From Chloroflexota bacterium (GTDB lineage: Bacteria > Chloroflexota > Anaerolineae > UBA1429), in contig JAAYDC010000006.1 of the NCBI GenBank assembly GCA_012729455.1, forward strand, positions 27,782 through 91,781: a stretch of 64,000 nucleotides of DNA, read 5' to 3'. The position numbers and the translations under genes are program-made. Positions within the stretch are counted from its first letter, which is position 1. Each line of letters opens with the position of its first letter. Shown here in pieces: positions 10,448 to 60,509 of this stretch. The notes beneath the pieces are model-generated. The model had not been told where the DNA came from. It did not search any database and saw only the letters and a list, made by a program, of their open reading frames with translations.

Positions 10448-10458
10448 GCGGTCTCCTC

Positions 10459-11488: not shown

Positions 11489-11502
11489 ATGCTCCGGCGG
11501 TG

Positions 11503-13499: not shown

Positions 13500-13500
13500 G

Positions 13501-24602: not shown

Positions 24603-25073
24603 ATGCAGCCGTCAATGTTGACACTGGATGCCTTTACTGTCGTTGGCCCGGTGTATCGCGGCCATAATCAGGCCGGCGAAATCCCCGCGATGTGGCAGAA
24701 CGTTTACCTGCCGCGTATGGACGAAATCCGCCATGTGATTGATGGCGACGAATCGTGGGGCGTGTTCGGCAACCACCAGCCCGATGGCAGCTTGACGTAT
24801 ATGGCGGGATCTCGGGTCGAAAAGGCCGAAGATATCCCCGAAGGTATGCAGGCCTGGGAGCTGAAAGCGCAGACCTATGCTGTCTTCCCTTGCACCCTCG
24901 CACAGATCGGCAAGACGCTGGCATATATCCATCAGGAGTGGCTGCCGGCCTCCGGCTACCTGCACGCCGCCGCACCAGAACTGGAATACTATGGCAAAGC
25001 CTTCTTAGAGGCGCCTGACGGCGTCGGCCAGATCGAGTTGCTGATCCCGGTGGTACCCCACGACCAGACCTAG
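24603..25073 (+). CDS. GyrI-like small-molecule-binding domain protein
   Basis: The product has an AraC_E_bind/GyrI-like fold pattern. A GGAGG RBS precedes the ATG. Confidence 0.55.
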   Translation: MQPSMLTLDAFTVVGPVYRGHNQAGEIPAMWQNVYLPRMDEIRHVIDGDESWGVFGNHQPDGSLTYMAGSRVEKAEDIPEGMQAWELKAQTYAVFPCTLAQIGKTLAYIHQEWLPASGYLHAAAPELEYYGKAFLEAPDGVGQIELLIPVVPHDQT

Positions 25074-25128
25074 GCTGACAAGCACGCCAGATGCGGATAT
25101 ACTCGCCTTTACCAGAGGAATGTGAGCC

Positions 25129-26400
25129 ATGAGAGTTGAACTTGCCTATGGGCAGGAACGTCTGAGCGTCCAGGTGCCCGACCATGCCACCGTGCTGCGG
25201 CCACATGCGGCCCCTGGGCTGGCCGACGAATGCCAGGCGATCCGCGAGGCGCTGCGCAACCCCTTGGGCACCGCCCCGCTGCGCGAGTTGGTAAAGCCCA
25301 GCCAAAAGATCGTGATCCTGTTCAGCGATATCACCCGCCCGATGCCCAGCGACCGCGTCTTGCCGGTGCTGCTCGAGGCGCTTGAGCACATCCCGCGCGA
25401 GCAGATCACGCTGATGAACGCGGTCGGCACGCACCGCGCCAACACCCCCCAAGAGCTGGAGCATATGCTGGGCAGTGAGATCGCCCACGGCTACCGCATC
25501 CTGACTCACGACGCCTTTGATGCTGCCAACCTGGTAAACTTGGGCACCTCGTCGCAGGGCAATCCGCAGCTGGTCAACCGCATCTGGCACGAGGCGGATT
25601 TCAAGATCGCCACCGGCTTTATCCAACCACACATCTTTGCCGGGTTCAGCGGCGGTCCCAAGGCCGTGCTGCCGGGCGTGGCCGGTTTCGAGACGATCAT
25701 GCCCAACCACGGCTATGCGATCCTCAACAACCCGCGAGCCACCTGGGGCGTGACAGAGGGCAACCCGGTGGCGGCTGAGATGCGCGAACTGGCACTGAAG
25801 AGCAAGCCCGACTTTCTGCTCAATGTGACCTCGAACCGCGACAAAGAGATCTGTGCAGTGTTTGCGGGCGAGATGCTGCAGGCGCATCGCGCCGGCATCG
25901 AGTTTGTGCGCCGCACCTCGATGGCTCCCTTTGACGAACCCTTTGATATTGTGGTCACCTCCAACGACGGTTATCCGGCCGATATCAACCTTTATCAATC
26001 CGTCAAGGGTATGTCGGCTGCCGCGCAGATCGTCAAACCCGGCGGGGCGATCATCATTGCCGCCGAATGCCGCGATGGCGTGCCCGATAACGGCCAATAT
26101 CGCAAGCTGGTGGAGCGCGCCGGCAGTCTGGCCGGCATGCAGGCCATGCTCTCGCAACCCGGCTTTCAGGAATATGACCAATGGCAGGTGCAGCTGCAAG
26201 CTGGCGTGATGGCCAAGGCGGATGTTTACGTCTACAGCGAGCTGGCCGATGCCGACGTGCGCAGCATGCTGCTCAACCCGACCCATTCGGTCGAGACCAC
26301 GCTCGACGCCCTGCTGACGCGTTACGGCGCCGATGCCAAGGTGTGCGTGATGCCCGAAGGCCCGCTGGTGATCCCTTACCTCGCCCAACAGGAGGGCTGA
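25129..26400 (+). CDS. LarA-family protein (Ni-pincer-nucleotide-dependent 2-hydroxyacid racemase/epimerase homolog, DUF2088), paralog 1
   Basis: The 423-aa product has an N-terminal DUF2088 pattern (KIVILFSDITRP…VGTHR) that is shared with the second paralog at 54416–55669. Confidence 0.65.
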   Translation: MRVELAYGQERLSVQVPDHATVLRPHAAPGLADECQAIREALRNPLGTAPLRELVKPSQKIVILFSDITRPMPSDRVLPVLLEALEHIPREQITLMNAVGTHRANTPQELEHMLGSEIAHGYRILTHDAFDAANLVNLGTSSQGNPQLVNRIWHEADFKIATGFIQPHIFAGFSGGPKAVLPGVAGFETIMPNHGYAILNNPRATWGVTEGNPVAAEMRELALKSKPDFLLNVTSNRDKEICAVFAGEMLQAHRAGIEFVRRTSMAPFDEPFDIVVTSNDGYPADINLYQSVKGMSAAAQIVKPGGAIIIAAECRDGVPDNGQYRKLVERAGSLAGMQAMLSQPGFQEYDQWQVQLQAGVMAKADVYVYSELADADVRSMLLNPTHSVETTLDALLTRYGADAKVCVMPEGPLVIPYLAQQEG

Positions 26401-26401
26401 C

Positions 26402-28446
26402 ATGACCCGTGAACTGGCTTTGATCCCGCAGCCAAAACAGCTCGAGCGCGGCAAAGGGGTTTTTCAGCTGCAACCGAACACCCGCATCGCCCTGCTGGCG
26501 CCCAATGCGCAGGCGGACCTGGTTGCAGCCGAGTTGCTGTAGCAGGAAATCGCGGCGGCCAGCGCCCTCGAGCTCGAGATCGTAGCCCTCGCGGAGCGCA
26601 ATCTACAGACCAACCAGATCATGCTCGACTCGCAGGGGCTATGCCAAGCTATCCCCGAGCTGGAGAGCCCGCAGGCCTATCTGCTGGTAATCGAGCCGGG
26701 GCGCATCTGCTGCGGCGCCAGCAGCCTGACGGGCCTGTTTTACGCCGTTGCAGACCCTGCGCCAGCTGGTGCGCACCTTTGGCGCCGAACTGCCGGTGCT
26801 GAGCATCCGCGACTGGCCATCGCTTGAGCATCGCGGCGTGATGATGGACGTTTCACGCGGCAAAGTGCCGACCGTTGCGACCATCAAACAGGTGATCGAC
26901 TAGATGGCGCTCTTTAAGATGAACGTGCTGCAGTTTTATACCGAGCATACCTTTCACTTTGCGCGCCACCCGCGCATCGGCCAGGACTGCGGCTCGCTCA
27001 CACCACAGGATATCCTCGAGTTGGACGCCTACTGTCGTGACCGTCATCTCGAACTGATGCCGAACCTGCAATCTTTCGGCCATTGCGAGCACATCCTCAA
27101 CCTGCCCGAATATCGCCCACTGGCCGAATCAGCCGCCCTGTGGTCGCTTTCGCTGGCGGATGAGGGCAGCTATCAGCTGCTGGACGAGCTCTATGGCGAC
27201 ATGCTGCCCAGCTTTACCTCGCGCACGCTCAACATTGGCTGCGACGAGACCTATGACCTCGGCAAAGGGCGCAGCGCCGCAGTGGTCGAGGCGCAGGGGT
27301 TAGGTAGGGTTTACCTGGGACACATCCTGCGTCTGCGCGAGCTGGCGGCACACTACGGCTTCCAGATCCAGCTGTGGGGCGATATCCTGCTGCACCACCC
27401 CCAGCTGGTGAGCGAGGTGCCCGACGACGTAACCTTGCTCGACTGGCACTATGAGGCCGCCGACGATTACCCTTCGACAAAACTGTTTGGCGAACACCAG
27501 CGCCGCTTTTGGGTATGCCCGGACACCTCGTCGTGGAACACGCTCTTTCCGCGTATCGAGAATTCGAACGGCAATATCAAGACCCTGGCACGGGTAGGCA
27601 TCGAGCACGGCGCCGGCGGTATGCTCAACACCGATTGGGACGATGGCGGCCACTACCAGCCGCTGGGGCAATGCTAGTATGGCTATATTTATGGAGCTGA
27701 GCAATCGTGGAGCGGAGGCCGGAGCGAGGATGCTGCCTTTGACAAGGCTTTTGGCAGCCTGGTTTTCGGTACCGGCGGTCAAACCGTCGTGGAGGCCATC
27801 CGCGCGCTCGGGCGCATCAATATCCTGCAGGACATCGCTATCGGCAACGGCAGCCGCACAATCCACAGCCTGCTGGATGAGCCGCTCAACGGCAAGCTGG
27901 CCGACGAGATCCCGCCCGAGACCGTTATGCAGATGATCGACATCACCCAGCGCTGCGAGGCAGCCCTGCGCCAGGCGTATGCGACCGTGCGCGACCAGGT
28001 AAGTGTGGAGGAGCTCTTGTACAGCACGCGCCTGATCAACCTGACGGCGCAAGCTGGCGGCATCGCGGGCTCTGCGCGAGACCATTGCGCAGTTGCCAGA
28101 GGATACGCAGCAGGCTGCCATGGCCTTGCGGAAGGCCATGGCAGGATGGTTGGCGATCGAACGCGAGATCCCAGCCTTTGTCGAGCTCTTTCGCGAGCAG
28201 TGGCTGCAGCGCGCGCGGTATTCAGAAATACGCATCACCCTGCACCACTTTAGCCGGCTGCTGGAGCGCTACAACTTTGCACACGAATGGCTGGCCATTA
28301 AGCTCGCCAGGCTCGAGGCGGGCGAAGCGGTCGCCCTCGACCTGGAGGAATACACGCAGCGTACTGGCCGCTATGAGATCCTTTACCAGGCCTGGGTACG
28401 CCACATTCAGGAGCTCGGCTTCGATTTGGGCCGAGCGCCAGCCTGA
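26402..28446 (+). pseudogene. GH20 beta-N-acetylhexosaminidase, degraded (3 in-frame TAG codons plus 2 frameshifts)
   Basis: GH20 motifs are spread over three frames: IPQPKQ, GLFYAV[Q]TLRQL, HRGVMMDVSRGK…IKQVID*MALFKMNVLQFYTEH and NIGCDETYDLG. In-frame TAG codons lie at 26539–26541, 26901–26903 and 27675–27677. A +1 frameshift lies at about 26745 and a second frameshift at about 28055. Confidence 0.7.
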
Positions 28447-40322: not shown

Positions 40323-40332
40323 CTCGTACCTC

Positions 40333-41094: not shown

Positions 41095-41111
41095 GATACC
41101 TCCCGTGGTAC

Positions 41112-45707: not shown

Positions 45708-47780
45708 TTACGGGCGAATGCATACCTCGCCGCAACCCACACGCCCTTCTTCGACCATCAGGCCGATCGCCCCTTCGGCCAAGCCTTGGGGGTCGTCGAC
45801 CTCACAGATCAGCTCACCATCCACCCAGGCGCTGATGCAGCTGCCGGCCACCTGCAGCGTGAGGGCATAGTCGCGGTACAGTTCCCAGTTGAATGCAGTG
45901 GTATAGAGCACGCGCGTGCCATCCAGCTCGCGTATCAGGCTGATGTTACCATCGGCAGCCAACTGTAGGGCATAATAGCGCTTTAATCCCTGCACCCTGG
46001 CGGCCAGCCCAAAGGAGCGCGCCAGATGCGGGCGAAAACAGGCCGAGATCGTATAGTCGCGCCATTCGCGCAGACCCTGGATCACCATGCCCGTGCCAGT
46101 GTTTTGCCAGAGCCAGTATTCCGGCTCACCGCCAGGTATAAAGTCATCGGCGGCCAGCACCCAGGCTTGCATCCAGCGCGCGTTCTGGGCTTTGGGCGCT
46201 GTAAAGCGCACCTCAGGCGCGCCCTCCCAGGTGAGCCAGTCGAGGTAAAGCGTGCCGGCCTCATCGCCGGAGGCAGCCAGTTCCAGCCCCACCCAGGCGA
46301 TCGGGCAGCCATCCGGAACACGCACGCGCCAGGAGAGCTCGCGCACCTCGCCGGGCTTGACACACACTGCCTCACCGCGAGCGGTCGCCAGCTGCTCACT
46401 GGCATCGTAATACTGCACTGCCAGCGCCAGGCTCAGATCGGCGCAGTTGGCGGCATCTGAACTGACCGCTGCCCAAAGCAGCTGACCGCTGTAGAGCGTG
46501 GGCGAGGCCTCTATATGGTAGCCTCCGCCGCGCGTCGCCGGATAGGCCTCGCGCCCTACGCTCACGCCCGATTGCGACGCAAGCCGGTCATAGCGAATCG
46601 CCAGCGCATGCGCGCCTGTGCCAGAGTGGCCGGCGACATTCTCTACCTGGCAATTGGTCCCTGCAAAGCCCTGCAGTGCCCCGGGCAGATCAAAGTGAAA
46701 GCGCGCGCCGCCCTTGGAGGCACTAAAGGGCACCCCAGCCAGGGCGCAGCCCGCCGCGGCTACTTCAACCGCCTCGCGCACCGCGTCCGTCACCACCCGG
46801 CCACCGTCGGCAGTGGGGATATAGATGCGGTCGGCCACTGGTGTACGGAAATCCACCTCGGCGTTGATGCCCTCCAGCCCAAGGCGCACACCCATCAGGC
46901 AGCCGACGTTGGCCGAGTTACAATCGGTATCCCAGCCGCTGGTGTTGACGATCATCAGCGCGCGCTGAAAGCTCTCGGCGCCATATAAAAGTGCCATGAT
47001 CACCAGGGCGTGGTTGGGGATGATGTGGCAGCCCCCGCCATAGCGATCATAACCGTAATGGGATTCGATCAACGCGCGGGTGGCGTGCCAATCCGGATTG
47101 GCAGCGTGCCAGGCACGGATATCGGCGATTAAGCGTGCGATCAGGCAGTCCTCAGGGATTTGCGCCAGGCCGATATCCAGCAAACGCCCCATATCGCGCT
47201 CGTTAAAGGCGGCTGCCACCATGGCAGCAATGACCTGGGCGCCATAAACGGCCTCGCCGTCGTGGGAGACCCTCGCAGCCAGGTAAGCCAGCTGTGCCGC
47301 GCGTGCCGGATCGCCGGGGGCTGCCAACCCCCAGGCGTCGATAAAAATCTGCGCGCCGATCTGTTCGGCTACCACCGGTCCGTTCAAGGCGATCGAGCCG
47401 CTCTCGGGCGCCTGGATGCCGGCCCTGAGCCGCAGGTAGGCGGTATGCTCGGTCGAGCGCCCCATTCCGCCCCACCACAGCACCGACTTGTTCTCTACCA
47501 GATAGTTCAACCAGGTTTGGGCGACCTGTTGAGAGGTGATCTCGGCGGGATAGCCATAATCCTGCAGAGCTCGCACAAAGGTAAAGGTCCCCGAGATGTC
47601 GTCATCCGGCAAGATCAGCGAGCGCCCAAGGCGCTCCTGCAGATAGCCGTTGACCTCACCCACCTCACGCATGATGCGCGCATAATCCCAACCCTCGATC
47701 GGGCTGCCCACATACACGCCGATGACTTTACCGAGCACCCCGGCATAAACCCGCTCCAGATAATCCGACGGGATCGGCAT
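45708..47780 (-). CDS. ADP-ribosylglycohydrolase-family domain fused to a C-terminal concanavalin/LamG-like jelly-roll domain
   Basis: The N-terminal about 400 aa match the ARH fold (GKVIGVYVGSPIEGWDY…, GWDTDCNSANVGCLMGVRLG). The C-terminal about 280 aa have a beta-sandwich/DUF1080-like pattern. A GGGAGGTGG RBS is present. Confidence 0.6.
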   Translation of the reverse strand: MPIPSDYLERVYAGVLGKVIGVYVGSPIEGWDYARIMREVGEVNGYLQERLGRSLILPDDDISGTFTFVRALQDYGYPAEITSQQVAQTWLNYLVENKSVLWWGGMGRSTEHTAYLRLRAGIQAPESGSIALNGPVVAEQIGAQIFIDAWGLAAPGDPARAAQLAYLAARVSHDGEAVYGAQVIAAMVAAAFNERDMGRLLDIGLAQIPEDCLIARLIADIRAWHAANPDWHATRALIESHYGYDRYGGGCHIIPNHALVIMALLYGAESFQRALMIVNTSGWDTDCNSANVGCLMGVRLGLEGINAEVDFRTPVADRIYIPTADGGRVVTDAVREAVEVAAAGCALAGVPFSASKGGARFHFDLPGALQGFAGTNCQVENVAGHSGTGAHALAIRYDRLASQSGVSVGREAYPATRGGGYHIEASPTLYSGQLLWAAVSSDAANCADLSLALAVQYYDASEQLATARGEAVCVKPGEVRELSWRVRVPDGCPIAWVGLELAASGDEAGTLYLDWLTWEGAPEVRFTAPKAQNARWMQAWVLAADDFIPGGEPEYWLWQNTGTGMVIQGLREWRDYTISACFRPHLARSFGLAARVQGLKRYYALQLAADGNISLIRELDGTRVLYTTAFNWELYRDYALTLQVAGSCISAWVDGELICEVDDPQGLAEGAIGLMVEEGRVGCGEVCIRP

Positions 47781-47895
47781 TACCCCACCTCCCTGCGTTG
47801 TTTTGTTTGTTGTAGCCCAGTGCCGGGCCCGCGTCAAGGGGCTGGTTTGACATCCACCGGGCTTTCGGGCATACCTAGGTCATACTACCTGATGG

Positions 47896-48960
47896 ATGGG
47901 TATGCGAAAGCTAACAATGCGCGAGCGCCTGCTGGCCGTGATCCACGGTAAGCCGCTCGACCGCGTGCCGCTGATCATGTACGAGGGGGTGATCCCCACT
48001 GATCAGGCCTGGCAGCTGCTGGGGCGCGAGCGCCTCGGGTTCTTGCGCTGGAGCGCGGTGCACCGTGTCGACACCCCGCACTGCCGTTTTGAGACGATCG
48101 AAAAGCGCGTCAATGGCCAGCGCCAGCAGCGCATCGTACTGCATACCCCCAAGGGCGACCTGTACGAAGAGCGTACCTTTGAGCCGGTGTATAATTCCAG
48201 CTCGATCCACAAGCACTTTGTGGAGGAACCTGAGGATTATGACAAGTTGTGGGCTTACCTGGAGGATGGCATCGTCGCGCCCGATTACGAGCGTTATCTA
48301 AAGGATGCAAGCGATCTGGGCGACGATGGCCTGCCCCTCACGGCTGTCGAACGCAGCCCCTACCAACAGCTATGGATCCAATGGGTCGGGCTCAGCACAC
48401 TCGGTTACCACTTTGCGGATATCCCCGAGCGCGTCGAGCATACCATGGCGCTCCTGCGGGCTCGCGCCCTGCAGATTTTCGAGATCGTGCGGCACTCGCC
48501 CACCGAGTTGATCGACTTTCCGGATAACATCACCGCGCCGCCGCTCGGCCCGCGCCGCTTTGCCGAGTATTGTGTGCCGCAATACAACCTGCTGGCCGAA
48601 ATGCTGGAGGGCAAGGGCGTCCCCGTGTTTGTGCACATGGATGGCGATCTCAAGCCCTTCTGGGAGATGATCGCTGCCTCCCGCGTTGACGGACTGGATT
48701 CGTTCGCCCCCGCACCCGATAACGACACCACCGTGGCGCAGGCGATCAGCATGTGGCCCGAAAAGCGGTTGTTTGTGAACTTTCCCTCTTCGGTGCACCT
48801 GCGCCCCTACGAGCAGGTGCGTGCCGAGGCCGAAGCAATCCTCGAGGCGGGCGGGCATACCGGCCGGCTAGAGATTCAGATATCAGAGAACGTGCCGCCC
48901 TTTGCATGGCCGACCAGTCTGCCGGCCATTGCCGACGCGATCGACGCGTTTCGCCCGTAG
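47896..48960 (+). CDS. uroporphyrinogen decarboxylase (URO-D)-family protein (MtaA/CmuA-like methyltransferase fold)
   Basis: The N-terminal RERLLAVIHGKPLDRVP matches the URO-D family signature. The product is 354 aa. Confidence 0.55.
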   Translation: MGMRKLTMRERLLAVIHGKPLDRVPLIMYEGVIPTDQAWQLLGRERLGFLRWSAVHRVDTPHCRFETIEKRVNGQRQQRIVLHTPKGDLYEERTFEPVYNSSSIHKHFVEEPEDYDKLWAYLEDGIVAPDYERYLKDASDLGDDGLPLTAVERSPYQQLWIQWVGLSTLGYHFADIPERVEHTMALLRARALQIFEIVRHSPTELIDFPDNITAPPLGPRRFAEYCVPQYNLLAEMLEGKGVPVFVHMDGDLKPFWEMIAASRVDGLDSFAPAPDNDTTVAQAISMWPEKRLFVNFPSSVHLRPYEQVRAEAEAILEAGGHTGRLEIQISENVPPFAWPTSLPAIADAIDAFRP

Positions 48961-50106: not shown

Positions 50107-51600
50107 TCAGGCGGCAAAGCTAGAGCCGAGCACATTCTCGCAGATGCGGCGGAAGTGAAAGCCATAGATAGCATAGGTGATCGCCTGAGCAAAAAGCCTG
50201 GGGCGATGTGTCAGGGTCCACCATACCAGTTTCCAGAATTCCTTGCGTTCTTTGCCCATACCGATCAAAAACACGGCTTTGAAAAAGGCTTTGATATAAG
50301 CCCAACTGAGCGGGAACTTGCTGGTCACGCGCTGCCGGTACTCGCTCAGGAAGGTGTGTACACGCTGGTAATAAGCCTTGGGGGCATAGATGGTCGCCAG
50401 GATACGCTCATAGCCCTTGTGCAGTACCTTGGGATCCATTTTAGGAATAAAGTTAATCGTGGCGTCGACGTTATCGCCCGACGGGTTCATCAAGAGACGT
50501 CCTTCGGATTTCAGGCGCTTGTAGAGCTCGGTGCCGTTGATGGCCTGCAGCAGACCCACCATGGCCGTCACAATCCCCGAACGCTGGATAAAGTCGATCT
50601 GGCGCTGGAAAATCGTCTCGTCGTCGCTATCAAAGCCGACGATAAAACCGCCATCGACCTCAAACCCGTTGCGCTGCAGGGTCTTGACGGATGCGAGCAG
50701 GTCGCGCTCGAGGTTTTGCGCCTTCTGGCACTCGTTCAGGCTATCAGCGTCGGGGGTCTCGATGCCCACAAACACCGAGTTAAAGCCCGCTTCGCTCATC
50801 ATGTCCATCAGTTCCTGGTCATCTACCAGGTTGATGCTCACTTCTGTTTTAAAGGCAACTTCGGGGTGATCTTTGCGCCACTCGATCAGTGCTGGCAGGA
50901 CCTCGTTTTTAAGCTGGCGTTTATTGCCAATAAAGTTATCGTCGACAAAAAAGGCGCCTTTGGTCCAGCCGGCATCGTACAGCGCATCGAGCTCCACAAT
51001 CACCTGGGCAGCCGTCTTGGTGCGCGGACGGTGCCCGAGCATCGAGGTGATGTTGCAGAAATCGCAGGCAAAGGGGCAGCCGCGTGAATATTGCAGGCAC
51101 ATGTCGGAGTATTTATCGAGCTTGGCCAGGTGCCAGAGCGGTACCGGCGTCTTGGTGACATCGGCGAATTCCTTTGTCTCGTAGAGCGGTTTAGGATTCC
51201 CGGCTTTTAGATCCGCCAAAAAGAGCGGCAGGGTGATCTCGCCCTCGTTGAGCACAAAATGGTCAACTTCGGGGAAATCCTGATGCTCGCCTAGAAAAAG
51301 CGGCCCACCCGCCACGACCTTTTTGCCTGCCTGCTTGCAGCGATGGATCAGGGCGCGTACTGAATCGCGCTGCACCACCATGGCGCTTACAAAGCAATAG
51401 TCGGACCATTGCAGGTCGCTCTCGGAGAGCTCTTCGACGTTCAAATCGACCAGGCGCTTTTCCCAGGATTCCGGCAGCAACGCCGCTATAGTCAGCAAGC
51501 CAAGCGGTGGCAAGCTGGCCTTTTTACTGATAAAAGGCAAGGCGTAACGAAAGCTCCAAAAAGTATCCGGATTCTCTGGGTACAGCAGCAAAGCACGCAT
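50107..51600 (-). CDS. B12-binding-domain radical SAM protein with C-terminal DUF4070-like region (class B rSAM)
   Basis: The product has an N-terminal B12-binding domain and the CxxxCxxC motif QYSRGCPFACDFCNIT. It is 497 aa. It is the last gene of the GRE operon. Confidence 0.75.
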   Translation of the reverse strand: MRALLLYPENPDTFWSFRYALPFISKKASLPPLGLLTIAALLPESWEKRLVDLNVEELSESDLQWSDYCFVSAMVVQRDSVRALIHRCKQAGKKVVAGGPLFLGEHQDFPEVDHFVLNEGEITLPLFLADLKAGNPKPLYETKEFADVTKTPVPLWHLAKLDKYSDMCLQYSRGCPFACDFCNITSMLGHRPRTKTAAQVIVELDALYDAGWTKGAFFVDDNFIGNKRQLKNEVLPALIEWRKDHPEVAFKTEVSINLVDDQELMDMMSEAGFNSVFVGIETPDADSLNECQKAQNLERDLLASVKTLQRNGFEVDGGFIVGFDSDDETIFQRQIDFIQRSGIVTAMVGLLQAINGTELYKRLKSEGRLLMNPSGDNVDATINFIPKMDPKVLHKGYERILATIYAPKAYYQRVHTFLSEYRQRVTSKFPLSWAYIKAFFKAVFLIGMGKERKEFWKLVWWTLTHRPRLFAQAITYAIYGFHFRRICENVLGSSFAA

Positions 51601-51699
51601 TTCACAAACTCCCATTTCACTTAAACGAGCTATCTATAAGACACCGAATCCCCCAGGCAGGTTACGCCTGAGGGATTCGAATTGCAGAAATGGGAGTTT
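51601..51699 (-). promoter_or_regulatory. structured intercistronic RNA element that sequesters the rSAM RBS in a perfect 13-bp long-range helix around a nested hairpin
   Basis: On the mRNA, AAACUCCCAUUUC lies directly after the pfk UAA stop. It is complementary to GAAAUGGGAGUUU, which contains the GGGAG Shine–Dalgarno 7 nt upstream of the rSAM AUG. A nested hairpin (cgaatccc-c-caggc-aggttac-gcctg-a-gggattcg, 51645–51679) lies between the two segments. Confidence 0.5.
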
Positions 51700-52986
51700 T
51701 TACTTGCGGTAATCCTGCGGGGTATACACCTCGAGCACCTGACGCACCTGCTGAGCGCCGAGTTCGGCGAAACGCAGCCGGCCATGCTCCAGGATGACCT
51801 CGGGCCAGCCATCACCCAGTAACGGCTGGGCGTAGCGGATAAAGTCATCCGTCACGTCACAATGGTCGCGGTCGATCCATTCCTTTGGAAAGGTGCGTTC
51901 AGAGTTGGCCATCTCGCCCAGCGGCACGCTGGTATAGCGCACCGTATAGGGCGCATCGGATGTGCGCACCAGGCTGGCCATCTTGCCGGATATGTGTTGC
52001 GCAGCCAACCCCGCGGCCTGCTGCCCGACGGCACGCGCCTCCGCCAGGTCGACGGTCGAGGCATACACGATATCGTGGCGCTGCTGCGTGCCAGGGATAT
52101 TGGCGCGCGCCGAGCCGCGCGCTGCCAGCCCTGCCTGGTTGAGATAGTTGACCAGCAGCTGTGCAGCGGTGCTGGCACTCGACGAGAACTGGGTATGCCC
52201 AAAGGCATCCTGACGTTCTCCCAGTGAGCCCAGATCAAGCCCTTCGCTCAGCACCACTATGGCGCGCCCAGCGCGCCGCAGGGTGTCATTGATCAGGTCG
52301 GCGAGCTCGGGCAGCGTATAGCTGCTTTCGGGCAGCAGCAGCAACATCGGTAACTCGCGCTGCGGATCTGCGAGCCGAGCCGCCGCCGGGATAAAGCCAA
52401 TCCGGCGTCCCATGGCTTGCAGCACCAGCACCGGGTCGGCTGGGAACGAACCGCGGTTTTCCTGATCGGCCTGCTGCACCGTCAGCGCCCAGTAGCGCGC
52501 ACAGCTGCCGTAACCGGGCGAGTGATCCAGCAGTTGGAACGCCTGGTCGCCCAGGTCGTTATCGATCGTCTTGGGTACACCCACTGCCACCAGGTCGGGC
52601 CCGCGCTGGTGCGCCAGGTCGGCAATCTTGTTGGCGGTGTCCATCGAGTCGTTACCGCCGATGTAAAACAGATAGCCCACTTCATGGGCTTGCAGCACGG
52701 CAATGACGCGCTCGAAATCCTGCTGGTTGGCCGAGCGTAACTTGTAGCGGCAGGTGCCGATCACCCCGGCAGCCGGCGTGGCTGAAAGCAATTCCACCTC
52801 GCGCGCTAGGGCAGCGCTGAGATCAAGCAGTTCTTCGCGCAGAAGACCCTCGACGCCGTTGGCTGCGGCATATAGCTTGCCAAAGGCGCGGCTGGCACGG
52901 CAACCCTCGATGATGCCGCGCAACGAGGCGTTGATCACCGGCGAGGGCCCGCCCGATTGCGCTACCAGCACATTACGCGCCGCCAT
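51700..52986 (-). CDS. pfk: 6-phosphofructokinase-family sugar-phosphate kinase; PPi-type signature (Asp104/Lys124 equivalents) but GGNDS instead of GGDGS/GGDDS
   Basis: The product contains the motifs [16 protein letters not shown] and [11 protein letters not shown] place the start at [20 protein letters not shown], with an AAGGGGG RBS. The start overlaps the gnd stop. Confidence 0.7.
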
Positions 52987-54406
52987 CGTGGCTGCCCCCT
53001 TGCAGACCCACCCAATCGGTGTGGAAGGATCCCTCACGGTCGGTGCGGCGGTAGGTGTGCGCGCCAAAGTAATCGCGCTGCGCCTGGGTCATGTTGGCAG
53101 GCAGGCGCTCGCTGCGATAGGCATCGTAATAAGCCAGCGCCGAGCTGAGCGCCAGACAGGGAATACCCAGCCGCACCGCCACCGTGACTACCTCACGCAG
53201 GGCCGGCACGCGCTCGATCATCGCCTGGCGGAAGAAGGGATCCAGCATCAGGTTGGTGAGCTTGGGGTCGCACTTATAGGCCGCGGTAATGTCGTTGAGG
53301 AAACGCGCCCGGATGATGCAGCCGCCACGCCAGATGGCGGCGATGCGCCCATAGTCCAGGTTATAACCAAACTCATCCGAGGCTGCGTGCAGCAGGCTCA
53401 TGCCCTGCGCGTACGAGCAGATCTTGGCCGCGTACAGCGCCGCGCGCACCTGGCTGATCAACGTCTGACGGTCGCCCTCATAGGCAGCTTGCGGACCCGG
53501 CAGCACCTTGCTGGCTGCCACGCGTTCGGCCTTGTATGCCGAGATAATGCGCGATTCGACGGCTGCGTTGATTGTAGGTGTGGGGGCGCCCAGATCCAGG
53601 GCGCTCTGCGAGGTCCACTTGCCAGTGCCTTTTTGCTGGGCTTCGTCGAGGATCACATCCACGAGCGGTACGCCCGTCTCGACATCCGATACAGCCAGGA
53701 TATCGGCGGTGATCTCGATCAGATACGACTGCAGCTCGGCCTGGTTCCACTCGCTGAAAATGCTGTGCAGTTCGGACGCCGAAAGGTTCAGGGCACGATG
53801 CAGGATATCGTACGATTCGGCGATCAGCTGCATATCGCCATACTCAATGCCGTTGTGCACCATTTTGACATAGTGCCCCGCTCCGCGTGGGCCGATGTAG
53901 GTGACACATGGTTCGCCATCCACCTTGGCGGCGATGGACTCAAAGATCTGCTGCACGAGCGGGTAGGCATCGGGCTGGCCGCCAGGCATGATAGCTGGCC
54001 CCCGCAGGGCACCCTCCTCACCGCCCGAGACGCCCGTGCCGATATAGCGCAAGCCGGCCTTTTCGAGCGCGGCGGCGCGCCGTTCGGTATCCTGGTAAAA
54101 CGAGTTGCCGCCGTCGATAATCAGGTCGCCGGGTTCGAGCACCGGCACGAGCTGGTCGATTACCGCATCAACCGGCGCTCCTGCCTTGACCATCAGCATC
54201 ACCCGGCGCGGGCGCTCCAGGGCAGCCGCCAGCTCTTCAAGGGTAGCGCAGCCAGTCAGCTTTTTGCCGGGATGCTCAGCAATAAAATCTTCCGTTACGC
54301 TGGTGGTACGGTTGTATACCGCCACGTGGTAACCGTTGCGCTCCATGTTCAAGACCAGGTTCTGGCCCATTACAGCCAGGCCGATCAAACCGATTTGGCT
54401 TGCCAT
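52973..54406 (-). CDS. gnd: 6-phosphogluconate dehydrogenase (decarboxylating)
   Basis: The 477-aa product has [15 protein letters not shown] and IDGGNS motifs. A TAGGAGG RBS is present. Confidence 0.85.
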
Positions 54407-54415
54407 AAGTACCTC

Positions 54416-55669
54416 CTAGGAGCCCTTGAGTTTATAAAGCAGTTCGCCGGCGCGAGGTACCACCAGGATACCCTCGTCTTCTTTGCCGGCCAGATCAGCT
54501 GGGTTAAAGCTATTGGGGTCGAGATAACCCAGGTTAATACGCTCACAACGTTCTCGCGGGATGCCCGTCGCCAGCACCACGTTCACGCGCGGATGCTCGA
54601 CGCCATCCGTATAAGTGCCGTCACCCTTTACGTGGCAGGCATGTGCCAGAACCGCCTGCGGCTCGTTGGCCACCTTATCCCAGTTGCTAAGGAAGTAGTC
54701 GCGCACATGGTAGCCCACATGATCGAGCACCTTGCCATGCACGTAGGATACTTCGGTAATATGTGGTGCATAGATCACCACGGTGCCGCCATCCGCCACC
54801 GCCGGCTCGACCTTGTACATGCCCTTGGAGCCGGTCCACAGGTCGTCGTACAGTTTCGGCATCACCGAGATCACCTTGTTAAAGGGTTTATCAACCCACA
54901 CCACGTTCCACAGCGCCGAAAGCTCGGCGGCCTTGGCTTGTGATTCTTCGGGCGTGCCGTAAAAGACGCCCGCAAGGTCATGATGACCTTTGACCACCAG
55001 GCTAAAGCAGCGCCGCTCGGTGGGGATCATGGTGGCAGCCTGATCAAGCATACGGCGCACCGCCGTATGCTGGTTGCCGATTATGGCGTGGCAGGTGATC
55101 AGCGCGGAGAGCCAGTGGGTCTGGTCGATCATGTTGCCGCCACTGATGCCCGGGAAAAAGTACTTGTTGCCGCCCGAAAAGCCGACCACCTCGTGCGGGA
55201 AAACCGGCCCCAGCACGATCAGATAGTCGTAATCCCTGACGCGGGCATTGATCTGCACGTTGATAGGCTCATGCATACGTCCGTCGGAGATCTCGGCCAC
55301 CTGCTCGGCACGGATGGTGCCGATATCCATCAGGCCGTGCTGCCAGTCGTGGTTGTAGATGCCCACTTCGGCATAACGGCCGGCACGCTCTTCGGAGCTA
55401 AAGCCAAAATGGCGCTCCAGCACCTCGCCCGTCATGGGGATGTGCGTGCCTGTGGCGATCAGAAAATCCAGCTTGGACGCCACTCCCAAGAGCTCATCGG
55501 TGATGATGCGAAAACAGAGCGGCAGCGGCAGACTGCGCGTGCCATCCGGCACGATAAAGAGCACCCGCTTGCCCTTTAATGGTGTGGCGGCAAAAGCCTC
55601 GCTAAAGACCTGCCGCACCTCATCATCCGTCAGAAACCGAGCGGTGCAACCTTTGCCAATCACCATCAT
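54416..55669 (-). CDS. LarA-family protein (Ni-dependent 2-hydroxyacid racemase/epimerase homolog, DUF2088), paralog 2
   Basis: The product contains the patterns RVLFIVPDGTRSLP and ATGTHIPMTGE. Its start overlaps the upstream stop in a TAATG arrangement. Confidence 0.65.
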   Translation of the reverse strand: MMVIGKGCTARFLTDDEVRQVFSEAFAATPLKGKRVLFIVPDGTRSLPLPLCFRIITDELLGVASKLDFLIATGTHIPMTGEVLERHFGFSSEERAGRYAEVGIYNHDWQHGLMDIGTIRAEQVAEISDGRMHEPINVQINARVRDYDYLIVLGPVFPHEVVGFSGGNKYFFPGISGGNMIDQTHWLSALITCHAIIGNQHTAVRRMLDQAATMIPTERRCFSLVVKGHHDLAGVFYGTPEESQAKAAELSALWNVVWVDKPFNKVISVMPKLYDDLWTGSKGMYKVEPAVADGGTVVIYAPHITEVSYVHGKVLDHVGYHVRDYFLSNWDKVANEPQAVLAHACHVKGDGTYTDGVEHPRVNVVLATGIPRERCERINLGYLDPNSFNPADLAGKEDEGILVVPRAGELLYKLKGS

Positions 55670-56568
55670 TACCCTGCCTTTCTCCATGGAGGAACCTCGG
55701 GCAAAAGACGTTCAAACTCGCTGACCAACTCGGCCTCATAGCTGCCGGCATAATCGAGTGCCAGAAAGCGCGGCAAACCCTCCTGGTAAAAGCGCTCCCA
55801 CGACTGTTCTTCATGGCCGGGGTTGATGGGAAAAAAGAGGGCCTGGTTATCGCGCGCGGCTTTCAGGTCGCCGGGCGCATCGCCGATCATCAATACATGC
55901 TCGGGTGCGTAACGGCCCTGCGAGCTCAGGCGGATATGTTCAGACTTGGTGCCCATCTCCTGGCCGGCGATCACCCGAACCAGGCCATCCAGGCTGTGTT
56001 CCTGCCATTCGCGGCGCAGCGCCTCGAGAGGCGTCTGCGACACCACAACAATATCGGCGCGCTCGTGCAGGGTGCTGAGTGATTCGCGCACCAGCGGGAA
56101 GGGCGGCACTCCGTGCACCATATCGGCGATGGTGGCGTTGACAGCCTTGCTCCAGGCCAAGGCGCGTTCCAGCTCGATACTGGGGTGCTCGCGAAGATAG
56201 CTGGCCAGAAAGTCGTTGCTGAGCCCACCCCCCTCGGCGATAAAGGCCCTGACATCGGTAAGCGGATGCACCACCGCGTTGCGCGCCTGCACCTCGGGGC
56301 GCTCGCGCAAGAGGTCAAGCACCTTGACCAGCGCCGGCCAGCGATTTACGCCGCGCCACTTGCTGTAGAGGTTGACGAACTCGGCCGCCTCGCGCGCGTA
56401 CTTTGATACGGACTGCAACTCCCAATAGTTGATGATGTTGGGAATAAAGCATTCCTTGTGCTTGATCTCCATAGTATCAAACACGCAGCCATCCGAGTCA
56501 ATCCCCACGAAAAAGGGGTGTTCAGCCTGCAACTCAGTCAGATGGGCAGAAAACTGTGTCAAGCTCAT
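55669..56568 (-). CDS. HAD-superfamily hydrolase (probable phosphatase)
   Basis: The product has HAD motif I (FFVGIDSDGCVFDT) and the C-terminal MIGDAPGDLKAA motif. Confidence 0.6.
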   Translation of the reverse strand: MSLTQFSAHLTELQAEHPFFVGIDSDGCVFDTMEIKHKECFIPNIINYWELQSVSKYAREAAEFVNLYSKWRGVNRWPALVKVLDLLRERPEVQARNAVVHPLTDVRAFIAEGGGLSNDFLASYLREHPSIELERALAWSKAVNATIADMVHGVPPFPLVRESLSTLHERADIVVVSQTPLEALRREWQEHSLDGLVRVIAGQEMGTKSEHIRLSSQGRYAPEHVLMIGDAPGDLKAARDNQALFFPINPGHEEQSWERFYQEGLPRFLALDYAGSYEAELVSEFERLLPEVPPWRKAG

Positions 56569-56583
56569 GCATGCCCCCTTGTG

Positions 56584-57417
56584 CTATACACCGCTGAACG
56601 CCGCAAAGCCGCCATCCACTACTGTGGTAGTGCCGTGCACAAAGGCGGATCCGGGCGCAAGCAGCCAGAATATGGTGCTGAGCAGCTCCTGCGGATCGCC
56701 CAGACGGTGCATGGGGGTATGCCCGACCACCGACTGCCCGCGCGCTGTAAGCTCGCCAGTGCCTTCGACGGTCATCAGGTAGCGGTTCTGCTCGGTAAGA
56801 TAAAAACCGGGGGCAATGGCGTTAACGCGGATGCGCGGCGAATAGTTATGCGAGATGTGCACCGCCAGCCATTCGGTAAAGTTGCGCACGGCTGCCTTGG
56901 CAGCTGAATAAGCCGGGATGTTGGTGAGGGGTTTGATGGCGTTAATCGAGGCGATGTTGATAATCGAGCCCTCGCCGCGTTCGGCCATATGCTTGCCAAA
57001 AACCTGACAGCAAATCAAGGCCGTTTTAAAGTTGAGATCAAAGACGCTCATAAAGGTGTCGAGCGGCAGATCGAAAAAGGGCAGCTCCGCGCTGGTAGTG
57101 GCTTCTTTGCGGTTGCCGCCGGCACCGTTAATCAGCGCATCGACGCAGCCATAAGCCTCAAGGGCGCGCGCAAGGGCTGCCTCGACATTGGCTTTATCCA
57201 GACAGTTGACCTCGAGTGCCATGGCCTGGCCGCCTGCCTGGGTAATGCGATCGACGACTGCCTGCGCCTTGGCTGGGTTATAGTCCATCACCAGGATACG
57301 TGCGCCTGCTCTGGCAAGCGCGTCAGCCATGGCACCGCACAGGATGCCTCCTCCGCCGGTGATGGCAATCACTTTGTCTTGTACTGAAAACAACTCGGCC
57401 AGATAGTCATTTGACAT
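56584..57417 (-). CDS. SDR-family oxidoreductase (gluconate 5-dehydrogenase/KduD-like)
   Basis: The product has the TGGGGILCGAMA Rossmann motif and the YSAAKAAV catalytic motif. An AGGAG RBS is present. Confidence 0.8.
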   Translation of the reverse strand: MSNDYLAELFSVQDKVIAITGGGGILCGAMADALARAGARILVMDYNPAKAQAVVDRITQAGGQAMALEVNCLDKANVEAALARALEAYGCVDALINGAGGNRKEATTSAELPFFDLPLDTFMSVFDLNFKTALICCQVFGKHMAERGEGSIINIASINAIKPLTNIPAYSAAKAAVRNFTEWLAVHISHNYSPRIRVNAIAPGFYLTEQNRYLMTVEGTGELTARGQSVVGHTPMHRLGDPQELLSTIFWLLAPGSAFVHGTTTVVDGGFAAFSGV

Positions 57418-57427
57418 GCGAGTACTC

Positions 57428-59590
57428 CTAAAGCGATTCGTGTTCGGTGCGAAGGATAATTTCTTCCTGCATGCGCGGCGAGAGCCCGACGAAATAGTCG
57501 CTGTAGCCGCCGATGCGCACCACCAAGTCGCGATATTGTTCGGGGTGCGATTGGGCAGCCAAAAGGACCTCTTTATCGACCACATTGACCTGGATCTCAA
57601 AACCGCCGCGCTGGATAAAGGTATCCACCAGGTTGCACAGACTTTGCGCAAAAGTGTCGCGCTGGCCAGTGCGAGCGAATTTGAGGTTCACGGCGATGCC
57701 GCCCAACATGGGGGTGTGGTCCCATTTGGTCGACGAGAGCACCGCTGCAGTCGGCCCCAGCCGTTCACGCCCCTGAGCAGGGCCCGAGCCGTCGCCCAGG
57801 GCTTGGGCGGCCAAGCGGCCATCGGCTGAGGCAGCCGTCACCTCGCCAAGGCGTTCGTGCATAATCCAGCAAAACAGCCCGGGATGGTAGTCGTCCCCCA
57901 AAAAGGTGCGGTAGCGTGCGCACTCGGCCCTAATGCGCTCGGTCACGCGCACCGCCAGCTGGTCGACCGAATCGTCGTCGTTGCCGTACTTGGGTACCTG
58001 GTTGAGGAACATCAGCCGCAGGTCTTCGCGTCCGGCATAGTTGCTGGCCAGCACCTCGGCCAGTTCGCTCAGGCTGATGCGCGGCTCGTCGTAGACAAAC
58101 TTGCGGATCACAGCCAGGGTATCCACCAGGTTGGCGAGCCCCACAAAGGAGGGCTCGATCCAATTGTGGCGGGCGCCGCCGCGGTCGATATCCAATCCGC
58201 GTGCCAAGCAGTCATTGACAAAGCACGAGAGCAGCGGCCATCCGCCATGATAATAACGCGTCATCTGGTTGGTGTTTTCACCGATCACGCCATGCAGCAG
58301 GAGCTCGGAGAGCTGCGCCTCGTAGGCTGCCAGCAGGCTCTCGAAATCCGGGTAGTCGGCCGGCTGGCTGGTAAGCCCCTGGGTTTGCGCTGCCCCAGCT
58401 CCGCGCGCCAGCGGGGCAATGCCCAACAGGTCGTGCAGGGGCTCCAGAAGGTTTATGTAGGGGCTTGCAACATAGACATTGGAGGAGGCAACCGGCGTCA
58501 TCTCGACGCAGGTGCTGTGCTGGTAAAGGCAGGCTTCGGCGGGCGGCAAACCGGCCTCGAGCATCCCCTGTGTGATGACCTCATCGTTAAAGATGGCCGG
58601 GTGGCTGAGCCCCTCGGACAAGAGCTCGCTGGCCAGCTGTTTAATATCCTCAGGCATCTCGGGCGTCCAGCACAGGCCGATGCCCGGATATGCCAGACGC
58701 GTATGGCGGATGGAACGCAAAAAGAGGCGCGTCAGATCGTTGCAGATATCCTTACCGCTGCCATCGCGCCCGCCCACCATGAAACCCACCGCCAGGCTGC
58801 GCGGTGTATAGACGTTAAAGAGCATGCACAGGCAGTCGATCAGTTCCTGCGCGCCGGCCTCGTCGATGGTGCCGTTCTTCAAATCACGCTCGTAATAGGG
58901 GAGCAGGTAACGGTCGGGGCGCCCCAGCTGGAAGAGCAGCATCATCTGGCTGGCGCACAGCGCAAAGGTCACCAGATGGATGGCCTGCATCGCCTCGTAA
59001 AAGCTGGTCGCCGGGTGCTCTGGCACGCGCCGGCAAATGTTGGCGATCTCGTATAGCTCCATGGCGCGCCTGGAATCGGCACGCGCTGCCAACTCTTCGG
59101 CATGCACCGCATAACGCTCCGAAAACGTCGAGAGGCCGTCCAGGGCGATCAAACAGGCGCGGTAAAAGGCATCCTTTTCGAGCTCGGAGGGCACCGTCAG
59201 GTTGAGGCGGCTGCGGAAGACGGCGATGCGTTCGCGGATGCCTACTAACCCGTGGCGCAGCAAGAGCTCATAGTCGATCGCCATATGCGCCCTTTGCCCC
59301 AGGACGGGCGAGGCAGCGCGGGAGGCATCTTTTTGCCAATGGGTCAACTCTTCTTGTTCGGCATCCGTGAGCTTGCGGCTGGGGAACTTGCCCACCAGGA
59401 GCTCGTCGTCGCCAATCTCGGGCGTCAGGCCGGTTAGCACCGCGGCGGTCGCCTGAGCACGCCGCACCAGCGGCCAGGGCTCGCGCGTGGTCGCAAGCCA
59501 CGAGCGTCCCCACAACAGCTCTGGCTCGCTGCTGTGGACCGAGCCCTGTTCCAGAAATGCGGCGCGTAACCGCTCGATGCGTTCCGTCAT
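57428..59590 (-). CDS. glycyl radical enzyme, PFL2/eliminase clade (C-x-E active-site loop), substrate unknown
   Basis: The C-terminal glycine-radical loop is VRIGGYSDYFVGL. The Cys loop is STCVEMTP, which has the Cys-x-Glu arrangement seen in GDH, CutC, HypD and PD rather than the Cys-Cys of PFL. The product is 720 aa. A GAGAGGAG RBS is present. Confidence 0.8.
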   Translation of the reverse strand: MTERIERLRAAFLEQGSVHSSEPELLWGRSWLATTREPWPLVRRAQATAAVLTGLTPEIGDDELLVGKFPSRKLTDAEQEELTHWQKDASRAASPVLGQRAHMAIDYELLLRHGLVGIRERIAVFRSRLNLTVPSELEKDAFYRACLIALDGLSTFSERYAVHAEELAARADSRRAMELYEIANICRRVPEHPATSFYEAMQAIHLVTFALCASQMMLLFQLGRPDRYLLPYYERDLKNGTIDEAGAQELIDCLCMLFNVYTPRSLAVGFMVGGRDGSGKDICNDLTRLFLRSIRHTRLAYPGIGLCWTPEMPEDIKQLASELLSEGLSHPAIFNDEVITQGMLEAGLPPAEACLYQHSTCVEMTPVASSNVYVASPYINLLEPLHDLLGIAPLARGAGAAQTQGLTSQPADYPDFESLLAAYEAQLSELLLHGVIGENTNQMTRYYHGGWPLLSCFVNDCLARGLDIDRGGARHNWIEPSFVGLANLVDTLAVIRKFVYDEPRISLSELAEVLASNYAGREDLRLMFLNQVPKYGNDDDSVDQLAVRVTERIRAECARYRTFLGDDYHPGLFCWIMHERLGEVTAASADGRLAAQALGDGSGPAQGRERLGPTAAVLSSTKWDHTPMLGGIAVNLKFARTGQRDTFAQSLCNLVDTFIQRGGFEIQVNVVDKEVLLAAQSHPEQYRDLVVRIGGYSDYFVGLSPRMQEEIILRTEHESL

Positions 59591-59606
59591 ATCCCCATAT
59601 CTCCTC

Positions 59607-60509
59607 TCAGCTGTGCTTGACCTGAATGCCCGCCTGAGCGGCAATCTCAGTCAGCTCATCCATCAGCTCTTTAGCGGGACGTTTGATCTCACGGGCACGG
59701 TAATCCATGCCCAGGCTATCGTACTTACCGGATGCCATCGGATGAAACGCTAGCAGCTCGTAATAAAGCAGGTTGGGCAACTCGGCCGCAAAGTGCGCAA
59801 TAGCGCTGATCTCCTCGGGAGTATCGTTAACGCCCGGCACCAGCGGGGTACGGATGATCAGTGGTTTGCCCTGCGCAGCCAGGGAGCGCAGGTTCGCCAG
59901 GATGCGCTCGTTCGAGACACCAGTGCATTCGCGGTGGCGGGCGTCGTCCATCAGTTTGACGTCCGCCATCACGAGGTCGGTGACGTCTAAAATCGCCTCG
60001 ACGCGGGCCCATGGGAAATGCAGCGCCGTCTCGATGGCAGTATGCAGACCCTGTTCGCGGCTCAATCGCAGGATCTCGTGAGCAAAGTCGAACTGCAGCA
60101 GGGGTTCGCCGCCCGAAAGAGTGATGCCGCCCTGTGAAGTCTCGTAAAAGGGCTTGTCGCGCAGCACCTCGTCAACGACTTCCTGAGCCGTCTTGACCTC
60201 GCCGGCGATGACCAGCGCTTCAGCATAACAAGTCTCAGCACAGCGCCCGCAGGCCTCGCAGCGCTCGCGATGATAGGCGCGCCCGTCGAGCAACTGCTCG
60301 TGAGCTGCGTTCGGGCAGCGCTCAAAGCAGGCGCCGCAGCCGATGCAGCGGTTCGGGAAAATCTGCAGCTGGCGTTTGGGTTCGAGCGTCTCGGGATTGT
60401 GGCACCAAAAGCAACGCAGGTTGCAGCCCTTGAAAAAGACGGTCGTGCGGATGCCCGGGCCATCGTGAATTGAAAAACGCTGAATATTGGTAACGATGCC
60501 GTTGACCAC
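59607..60509 (-). CDS. glycyl-radical enzyme activating protein (radical SAM, with inserted 2x[4Fe-4S] ferredoxin-like domain)
   Basis: The rSAM cluster lies in GCNLRCFWCHNPE and additional CxxCxxC(x)nCP clusters follow. The start codon is GTG. Confidence 0.85.
   Translation of the reverse strand: MVNGIVTNIQRFSIHDGPGIRTTVFFKGCNLRCFWCHNPETLEPKRQLQIFPNRCIGCGACFERCPNAAHEQLLDGRAYHRERCEACGRCAETCYAEALVIAGEVKTAQEVVDEVLRDKPFYETSQGGITLSGGEPLLQFDFAHEILRLSREQGLHTAIETALHFPWARVEAILDVTDLVMADVKLMDDARHRECTGVSNERILANLRSLAAQGKPLIIRTPLVPGVNDTPEEISAIAHFAAELPNLLYYELLAFHPMASGKYDSLGMDYRAREIKRPAKELMDELTEIAAQAGIQVKHS

Follow-up and report, generated by a model that had tools for sequence, protein, structure and literature searches.

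A gene of an Anaerolineae bacterium encodes a member of a widespread, compact and uncharacterised family of glycyl radical enzymes

A minus-strand gene at positions 57428 to 59590 of a 64,000-nucleotide stretch of DNA from a Chloroflexota bacterium (Anaerolineae; assembly GCA_012729455.1, contig JAAYDC010000006.1), hereafter the window, encodes a member of a widespread, compact and uncharacterised family of glycyl radical enzymes (GREs). GREs carry out chemically difficult anaerobic reactions, and newly assigned GRE clades have each revealed a new pathway, as for the conversion of choline to trimethylamine, hydroxyproline, sulfonates and anhydroglycolysis. The analysis shows the fold and motifs of the protein, how its catalytic residues align, which family it belongs to and how tightly its operon is packed. 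We favour the reading that the gene product is a functional GRE of this family that would cleave a C–O bond, probably in a carbohydrate-derived substrate. Its residues predict a real and ordinary-looking mechanism. What makes the finding valuable is a defined signature of the family and a substrate lead (sugar acids) that comes from the operon and can be tested, rather than the RIGGY glycine motif that had first drawn attention to the gene.

The gene encodes a complete GRE barrel

The longest open reading frame (ORF) of the GRE gene spans 57428..59644 on the minus strand and would give 738 residues from a TTG start. The ATG at 59590, which yields 720 residues, is the credible start, because it is preceded 10 nt upstream by a GAGGAG ribosome-binding site, the stop codon of the activase gene (59607–59609) lies 16 nt upstream, and more than 100 GRE homologues start within a few residues of this position. 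The only upstream extension, 18 codons from the TTG, overlaps the activase gene, and a longer protein was thus excluded. The initial annotation, made from the sequence alone, had called a GRE of 720 residues with the correct coordinates, leaving the minus strand unstated; its worry that the start might be wrong and the protein full-length is not borne out.

57428..59590 (minus): PFL2-type GRE, member of the compact family (about 715–735 residues), 720 residues, ATG start at 59590

Profile searches identified the PFL-like domain (PF02901, 392 bits, E 9e-117) and the Gly_radical domain (PF01228, 84 bits, E 1e-23), and these E-values exclude a chance match. An AlphaFold2 model built on 24 family sequences had a mean predicted local distance difference test score (pLDDT) of 84.8 and a predicted template modelling score of 0.88. 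Foldseek comparison of the model, along the lines that the initial annotation had proposed, revealed TM-scores of 0.86–0.91 at 24–29% identity to glycerol dehydratase (GDH), 1,2-propanediol dehydratase (PD), CutC, HypD and YbiW/PflD. Confidence falls to pLDDT 54–63 at residues 351–370, which hold the Cys loop. It is lower still, under 50, in the variable loop 397–407, which is also the segment of the family alignment that varies most in length. The model indicates a complete GRE barrel, and none of the characterised eliminases and isomerases is markedly closer to it than the others. The identical sequence has a database entry, where it is called a hypothetical protein from a Chloroflexi metagenome-assembled genome (MAG).

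The enzyme belongs to a compact family with its own Cys-loop signature

Comparison with the NCBIfam models revealed that the window GRE reaches no equivalog cut-off. The best model matches at model positions 155–785 only, and the HypD and HpsG/HpfG equivalog models gave 346.7, 355.8 and 312.7 bits (cut-offs 1100 and 1000).

TIGR01774 (PFL2/glycerol dehydratase), best NCBIfam model: 449.7 bits, cut-off 678.2
HpsG: 356 bits, cut-off 1000
HypD: 347 bits, cut-off 1100
CutC (TIGR04394): 310.5 bits, cut-off 1050
Pyruvate formate-lyase (PFL, TIGR01255): 103 bits, cut-off 994

A scan with one genome per species recovered 78 loci of the family, all in MAGs, from Chloroflexota, Armatimonadota, Clostridia, Planctomycetota, Lentisphaerota/Victivallales, Spirochaetales and Latescibacterota. 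To date the family is known only from uncultured anaerobes, many of them from digesters and sediments. Our literature search returned no paper on the family, and according to a 2026 review whole GRE clades remain without experimental validation (PMC13450708); the compact family, with its 78 loci across at least six phyla, is one of them. Same-family GRE pairs were seen at five loci (L065, 9848–15166; L080, 8001–12337; L081; L082; L084, 4703–10169), arranged as GRE-activase-GRE in Victivallales, as adjacent GREs without an activase in Armatimonadota and, on another contig, as a split GRE, a 277-residue ORF without a Pfam match, a GRE and an activase.

Alignment of the family defined the Cys-loop signature [HNQ]-S-T-C-V-E-[ILM]-[TS]-P, in which Thr precedes the catalytic Cys, whereas nearly all other GREs have Gly at this position. 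Judged from the alignments, this loop, and not RIGGY, is the most distinctive motif of the family.

The window GRE is about 70 residues shorter than GDH, CutC, HypD and YbiW, so that the initial annotation was right to call it short. It is not unusual among its relatives: all close homologues have 712–738 residues, and 67 of the best 149 cluster representatives (50% identity) have 680–765. The explanation first offered, a trimmed N-terminal region, proved wrong, since the N-terminal helices (residues 3–92) are present and align with GDH residues 8–97. Alignment with Escherichia coli YbiW and PflD and with longer GRE representatives placed the missing residues in three internal gaps, of 30 residues after residue 72, about 25 after residue 94 and 12 after residue 260. 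The short length is thus a trait of a broad clade, and by the alignments it comes from internal deletions in the N-terminal third.

Catalytic residues align with those of C–O-cleaving eliminases and isomerases

HMMER alignment to GDH (1R8W) paired Gly695 with Gly763, Cys361 with Cys433, Glu363 with Glu435 and His102 with His164, and each of these four residues is invariant in the 69 full-length family members from the genome loci. The Gly-Gly-Tyr loop, whose register the initial annotation had left in doubt, is thus aligned on the radical glycine. The peptides STCVEMTP and RAHMAID are the translations of 58493–58516 and 59273–59293 on the minus strand.

58493..58516 (minus): Cys loop S359-T-C361-V-E363-M-T-P366, aligned with GDH C433/E435; Cys361 predicted thiyl site, Glu363 predicted general base
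59285..59287 (minus): His102 in the beta1 motif RAHMAIDY, counterpart of GDH His164 by alignment

Within the Cys loop, S359 is kept in 66 and T360 in 64 of the 69 members, and Cys361 is also kept in all 67 short-clade representatives. The segment C361-V-E363 aligns with the CxE motif of GDH, PD, CutC, YbiW and PflD, and His102 with the beta1 His of YbiW, PflD and a PD-like representative. The CxE motif is kept by all GRE eliminases acting on C–O, C–N and C–S bonds and by the new isomerases, and GDH His164 is the proposed general acid that protonates the leaving hydroxyl (PMC13450708). The initial annotation had read the Cys-Val-Glu loop as the dehydratase/eliminase arrangement, and both the review and the alignment to GDH agree with it. 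Taken together, the catalytic-residue alignment supports a C–O-cleaving eliminase or isomerase mechanism, a reaction class that we assign by homology. A two-residue insertion in the Cys loop, suggested by pairwise HMMER alignment to CutC, was dropped after MAFFT alignment gave the loop the same length as in YbiW, PflD, PD-like and CutC-like sequences.

Residues aligned with the GDH substrate pocket differ from those of GDH and are well conserved. For the comparison we used Ser282, Tyr339, Asp447 and Tyr640, the glycerol-binding residues of GDH (1R9D).

GDH S282: L219 in the window GRE; Leu in 59 of 69 family members
GDH Y339: A267; Ala in 62 of 69
GDH D447: A375; Ala in 65 of 69
GDH Y640: F573; Phe in 66 of 69
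W575 and H578, two and five positions past the GDH Y640 equivalent: kept in 63 and 66 of 69

Across the wider short clade the pocket-aligned positions vary. The conserved, non-GDH residues suggest one shared, different substrate within the family, and the pattern would fit a family of a single specificity within a group that has diversified.

The GRE gene lies in an operon that points to sugar-acid metabolism

Seven minus-strand genes, including the GRE gene, run head to tail from 60509 to 51700, with gaps of at most 16 nt or overlaps. The other six genes and the hairpin that follows them are:

59607..60509 (minus): GRE activase, radical SAM protein of 300 residues, CNLRCFWC motif, inserted ferredoxin-like 2x[4Fe-4S] domain
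56584..57417 (minus): short-chain dehydrogenase/reductase (SDR) of 277 residues, D-mannonate oxidoreductase (UxuB-type) subfamily; NF006132, 336 bits, cut-off 281
55669..56568 (minus): HAD-like protein of 299 residues, DSDGCV motif; weak Pfam HAD_2 match, E 7e-6
54416..55687 (minus): enzyme of the LarA (nickel-pincer-nucleotide) superfamily, akin to the GntE D-gluconate/D-mannonate 2-epimerases; best PDB match 4NAR, Thermotoga maritima GntE2, E 8e-53
52973..54406 (minus): Gnd, NADP-dependent decarboxylating 6-phosphogluconate dehydrogenase; NF006765, 723 bits, cut-off 413; Pfam 6PGD and NAD_binding_2
51700..52986 (minus): pyrophosphate (PPi)-dependent 6-phosphofructokinase (PFK)-type kinase of 428 residues, last gene of the operon; NF010675, 358 bits, cut-off 273; start confirmed
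51644..51680 (minus): hairpin with a 16-bp stem, 20 nt past the PFK stop; tail not T-rich

The activase scored 359 bits against the TIGR02494 (PFLE_PFLC) model (cut-off 174) and matched the Pfam domains Radical_SAM, Fer4_12 and Fer4; it reaches no substrate-specific activase equivalog in NCBIfam. The SDR start codon lies 10 nt past the GRE stop, has an AGGAG site and is also found by an independent gene call. The HAD-like protein had no NCBIfam and no PDB match, and its gene sits between the SDR and LarA-like genes in five Anaerolineae loci (L001, L003, L005, L007 and L010). With 190 bits against a cut-off of 500 for the NCBIfam 'putative hexonate epimerase' model, the LarA-like protein is a relative, not a member, of that family. 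T. maritima GntE2 is reported to be a D-gluconate 2-epimerase and to offer D-mannonate a probable way into the pentose phosphate pathway (PMC7583248). By analogy the LarA-like protein needs the nickel-pincer nucleotide cofactor; no larB, larC or larE was found among the annotated window ORFs, with no search aimed at them. The hairpin probably marks the end of the transcription unit, as a putative terminator. As a whole, the operon context points to sugar-acid metabolism. The initial annotation had overlooked this context, as well as the large family, its fixed Cys loop and its conserved non-GDH residues at pocket-aligned positions, all of which tell more than the glycine motif.

Five Anaerolineae loci preserve the gene order of the window; their GREs share 66–75% identity with the window GRE. 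Independently of these, two Clostridia loci (L029 and L063) have the order GRE, IclR/KdgR-like regulator, activase, mannonate dehydratase UxuA and UxuB-like SDR. At other family loci the neighbours are variable, though often linked to carbohydrates: a sugar ABC transporter with a sugar-binding-type regulator, a GH38 protein, an apiosidase-like protein with CBM9, or GFO_IDH_MocA with GH3. A Pfam census of the 123 immediately flanking ORFs counted the activase 21 times, SDR and IclR 4 times each, and GFO_IDH_MocA and URO-D 3 times each. An activase was found within 10 kb of the GRE, on one side or the other, in only 32 of the 78 loci; many GRE genes of the family have the look of orphans, though some of the contigs are short. 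All-against-all ORF clustering in the 78 loci, tblastn with the window neighbours and the Pfam flank census identified no universal partner gene other than the activase.

URO-D-like genes (PF01208, no NCBIfam name) occur within about 10 kb of family GREs in 16 of 87 loci and directly adjoin the GRE in four phylogenetically separate ones. We did not adopt them as a GRE partner and record them as an unexplained observation.

URO-D-like genes: window 47896–48960 (plus); L016 12271–13455; L018 12126–13280; L026 11977–13308; L069 8744–9811

Proposed reaction and substrate

In the mechanism that we propose, the activase would abstract a hydrogen from Gly695 to give a stable glycyl radical, which would generate a thiyl radical on Cys361, as homology to GDH, HypD and YbiW suggests. 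The thiyl radical would take a hydrogen from a substrate carbon that bears a hydroxyl, and Glu363 would deprotonate this hydroxyl to form a ketyl radical. The neighbouring C–O bond would then be broken, with either a hydroxyl leaving as water or a ring or ether oxygen being released, and His102 would serve as the acid. Return of the hydrogen from Cys361 would give a keto or deoxy-keto product.

The substrate assignment is speculative. Gene context suggests, less firmly, that a hexuronate- or hexonate-type sugar acid is the most likely substrate in this organism. The keto product may be reduced by the co-transcribed mannonate-oxidoreductase-like SDR, the natural candidate because its gene starts 10 nt after the GRE stop, and the GntE-like epimerase and Gnd could then carry the reduced product into the pentose phosphate pathway. 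A bolder proposal, which we regard as tentative and on balance doubtful, is that the compact STCVE family catalyses an undescribed GRE reaction, in which radical chemistry would break a C–O bond in a sugar acid of the hexuronate or hexonate type or in a modified sugar released from polysaccharide. Such a cleavage might take the form of ring opening, dehydration or ether elimination, with the keto product handed to the fructuronate-reductase-like SDR, the GntE-like epimerase and Gnd. If true, this would give strict anaerobes such as the Anaerolineae, Armatimonadota and Clostridia a radical entry from uronic and aldonic acids into the pentose phosphate pathway.

Several points weigh against the favoured reading. 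The SDR link is present in only 7 of the 78 loci, no neighbour except the activase is conserved family-wide, and the synteny of the five Anaerolineae loci could reflect common ancestry, not common function. Gnd and the PPi-dependent PFK are central-metabolism genes that are perhaps merely co-transcribed. The hexuronate-to-fructuronate step and mannonate dehydration are carried out by the non-radical enzymes UxaC and UxuA, so that radical chemistry is unneeded for them, which argues against the simplest sugar-acid substrates. The pocket-aligned residues (Leu, Ala, Ala, Phe and Trp) are fairly hydrophobic and would also fit a less polar substrate; they were mapped by sequence alignment alone, and the Cys-loop region of the model has a pLDDT of 54–63. 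Because of the few loci with the SDR, the dispensability of radical chemistry for the obvious conversions and the hydrophobic pocket-aligned residues, we hold the sugar-acid assignment weakly.

Alternative readings

A YbiW/PflD-type isomerase would open an anhydro-sugar (phosphate) ring by radical C–O cleavage to give a deoxy-ketose, followed by SDR reduction. The window GRE has in common with YbiW (DAHLAVNF) and PflD (QGHIIIDY) both the CxE motif and the beta1 His, and the E. coli order ybiY-ybiW-ybiV, encoding activase, GRE and a HAD-family sugar phosphatase, matches that of the window. GFO_IDH_MocA oxidoreductases adjoin the GRE in three loci, and the context is carbohydrate-related throughout. 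However, the identity to YbiW and PflD is only 31%, no FsaA-type aldolase or phosphotransferase system (PTS) gene was seen among the annotated neighbours, and the HAD-like protein of the window matches no named phosphatase family. We regard this isomerase reading as unlikely.

The glycine loop raised another possibility, namely that the paired Gly residues, the Ile and the absence of some 70 residues from the N-terminal region alter radical storage or installation, through different activase docking or a different radical-bearing residue. The peptide VRIGGYSDYF is the translation of 57491–57520 on the minus strand.

57503..57517 (minus): Gly loop R692-I-G-G695-Y696, aligned with GDH R760-V-A-G763-Y; Gly695 predicted radical glycine

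The initial annotation had called the loop atypical. RIGGY is indeed uncommon among canonical GREs. Gly at the x position of the published fingerprint around the radical glycine, RVxG[FWY]x6-8[FL]x4Qx2[IV]x2R, occurs in 29 of 66 short GREs and 1 of 57 long ones (50%-identity cluster representatives), a tendency of the short clade. Yet the window segment R-I-G-G-Y-SDYFVG-L-SPRM-Q-EE-I-IL-R fits this fingerprint with a conservative V-to-I change as its sole departure. Among the 120 closest homologues the loop reads RIGGY in 91, RIAGY in 19, RVAGY in 6 and RVGGY in 3; of the 69 family members, 43 have I and 26 have V at position 693, 48 have G and 21 have A at position 694, and all have R692, G695 and Y696.

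Besides the enrichment of Gly in the short clade, altered radical handling would be in keeping with the lack of an activase within 10 kb at all but 32 of the 78 loci, with the tandem GRE paralogues and with the non-glycine radical reservoirs now known in the superfamily (PMC13450708). Against it, other members of the family carry RVAGY or RIAGY between flanks that are otherwise identical, the radical glycine, the next aromatic residue and the rest of the fingerprint are invariant, the window activase is a standard TIGR02494 member, and the deletions precede beta1, in sequence far from the C-terminal glycyl radical domain. This reading is therefore improbable. Because canonical RVAGY occurs within the family, RIGGY is not a functional departure; the alignments present it as clade-typical drift that alternates with the canonical motif, with altered chemistry not indicated. 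Both RIGGY and the short length are family traits without demonstrated mechanistic consequence.

The enzyme could instead be a diverged orthologue of B12-independent GDH or of PD that dehydrates a small vicinal diol. Foldseek and HMMER rank GDH (1R8W) and PD (5I2G) highest, and His102, Cys361 and Glu363 are the counterparts of the GDH catalytic triad. Their identity to the window GRE is nevertheless only 27–29%, CutC, HypD and YbiW are equally distant, the TIGR01774 score is under the cut-off, and the diol-binding S282, Y339, D447 and Y640 are replaced by Leu, Ala, Ala and Phe. Moreover, the checks of flanking genes revealed none for a microcompartment shell, an aldehyde dehydrogenase or a 1,3-propanediol dehydrogenase. 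A diol dehydratase is thus very improbable. Other GRE chemistry, whether decarboxylation, X-succinate synthesis or formate-lyase cleavage, has in its favour that the pocket-aligned residues are fairly hydrophobic, and is the least credible reading of all, given a single Cys followed by Val-Glu in place of the PFL-like Cys-Cys pair, 103 bits against a TIGR01255 cut-off of 994, no small accessory subunit genes among the annotated neighbours, decarboxylase and benzylsuccinate synthase structures as the weakest matches, and a CxE motif and beta1 His that fit the eliminase and isomerase classes.

Other features of the window

The remaining genes of the window are ordinary chromosomal genes and add nothing to the GRE finding. 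Those recorded are:

50107..51615 (minus): B12-binding radical SAM protein with DUF4070, just downstream of the operon hairpin; it also adjoins the cluster in L001
60624..62351 (plus): NERD-domain and UvrD-like helicase protein, divergent from the activase gene and not conserved in any related locus
45708..47837 (minus): ADP-ribosylglycohydrolase-family protein of 709 residues with a weak C-terminal lectin-like match (Glyco_hydro_59_C)
13501..15138 (minus) and 24634..26454 (minus): ORFs of 545 and 606 residues, no Pfam match at E <= 1e-5

Strong positive AT skew of 0.21–0.29 was observed at 10001–14000 and 40001–42000, over minus-strand genes for membrane proteins (BPD_transp_1, Proton_antipo_M and ECF/CbiQ transporter components), and is probably an effect of coding composition.

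Comparison with known systems

GDH of Clostridium butyricum (DhaB1, 1R8W/1R9D) and PD of Roseburia inulinivorans (5I2G) have the ten-stranded barrel in common with the window GRE (TM-score about 0.90). The radical Gly, catalytic Cys, CxE Glu and beta1 His align, and the activase is of the same type with an inserted ferredoxin-like domain. The window GRE differs from both in its 27–29% identity, in being about 70 residues shorter with three internal deletions, in the Thr that precedes the catalytic Cys where Gly is usual, and in having no diol-pathway or microcompartment genes seen nearby.

The likeness to YbiW/PflD of E. coli (8ID7, 8YJO and 8ID0) comprises the CxE motif, the beta1 His, the carbohydrate context and the order activase, GRE and HAD. 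The window GRE is 31% identical to YbiW and lacks its segments of about 30, 25 and 12 residues; the pocket-aligned ESNGHS of YbiW is replaced by a Leu-Leu-Phe-Gln segment in the compact family, and no aldolase or PTS genes were seen nearby. CutC, HypD and the sulfonate lyases IslA, IseG and HpsG have the same fold and CxE loop (HMMER E 1e-70 to 1e-100). Asp216 and Thr502 of CutC correspond to His102 and Val374 in the window GRE, and the NCBIfam equivalog scores for this group reach 310–356 bits against cut-offs of 1000–1100.

For the genes downstream of the GRE, though not for the GRE itself, the best parallel is the hexuronate/gluconate module of T. maritima. Neither a gluconate kinase nor UxaC or UxaE was seen in the window operon, which instead holds the GRE, the activase, the HAD-like protein and the PPi-dependent PFK. 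As in that module, which comprises mannonate oxidoreductase, GntE and Gnd, the window groups an SDR of the mannonate oxidoreductase type with a GntE-like LarA homologue and Gnd.

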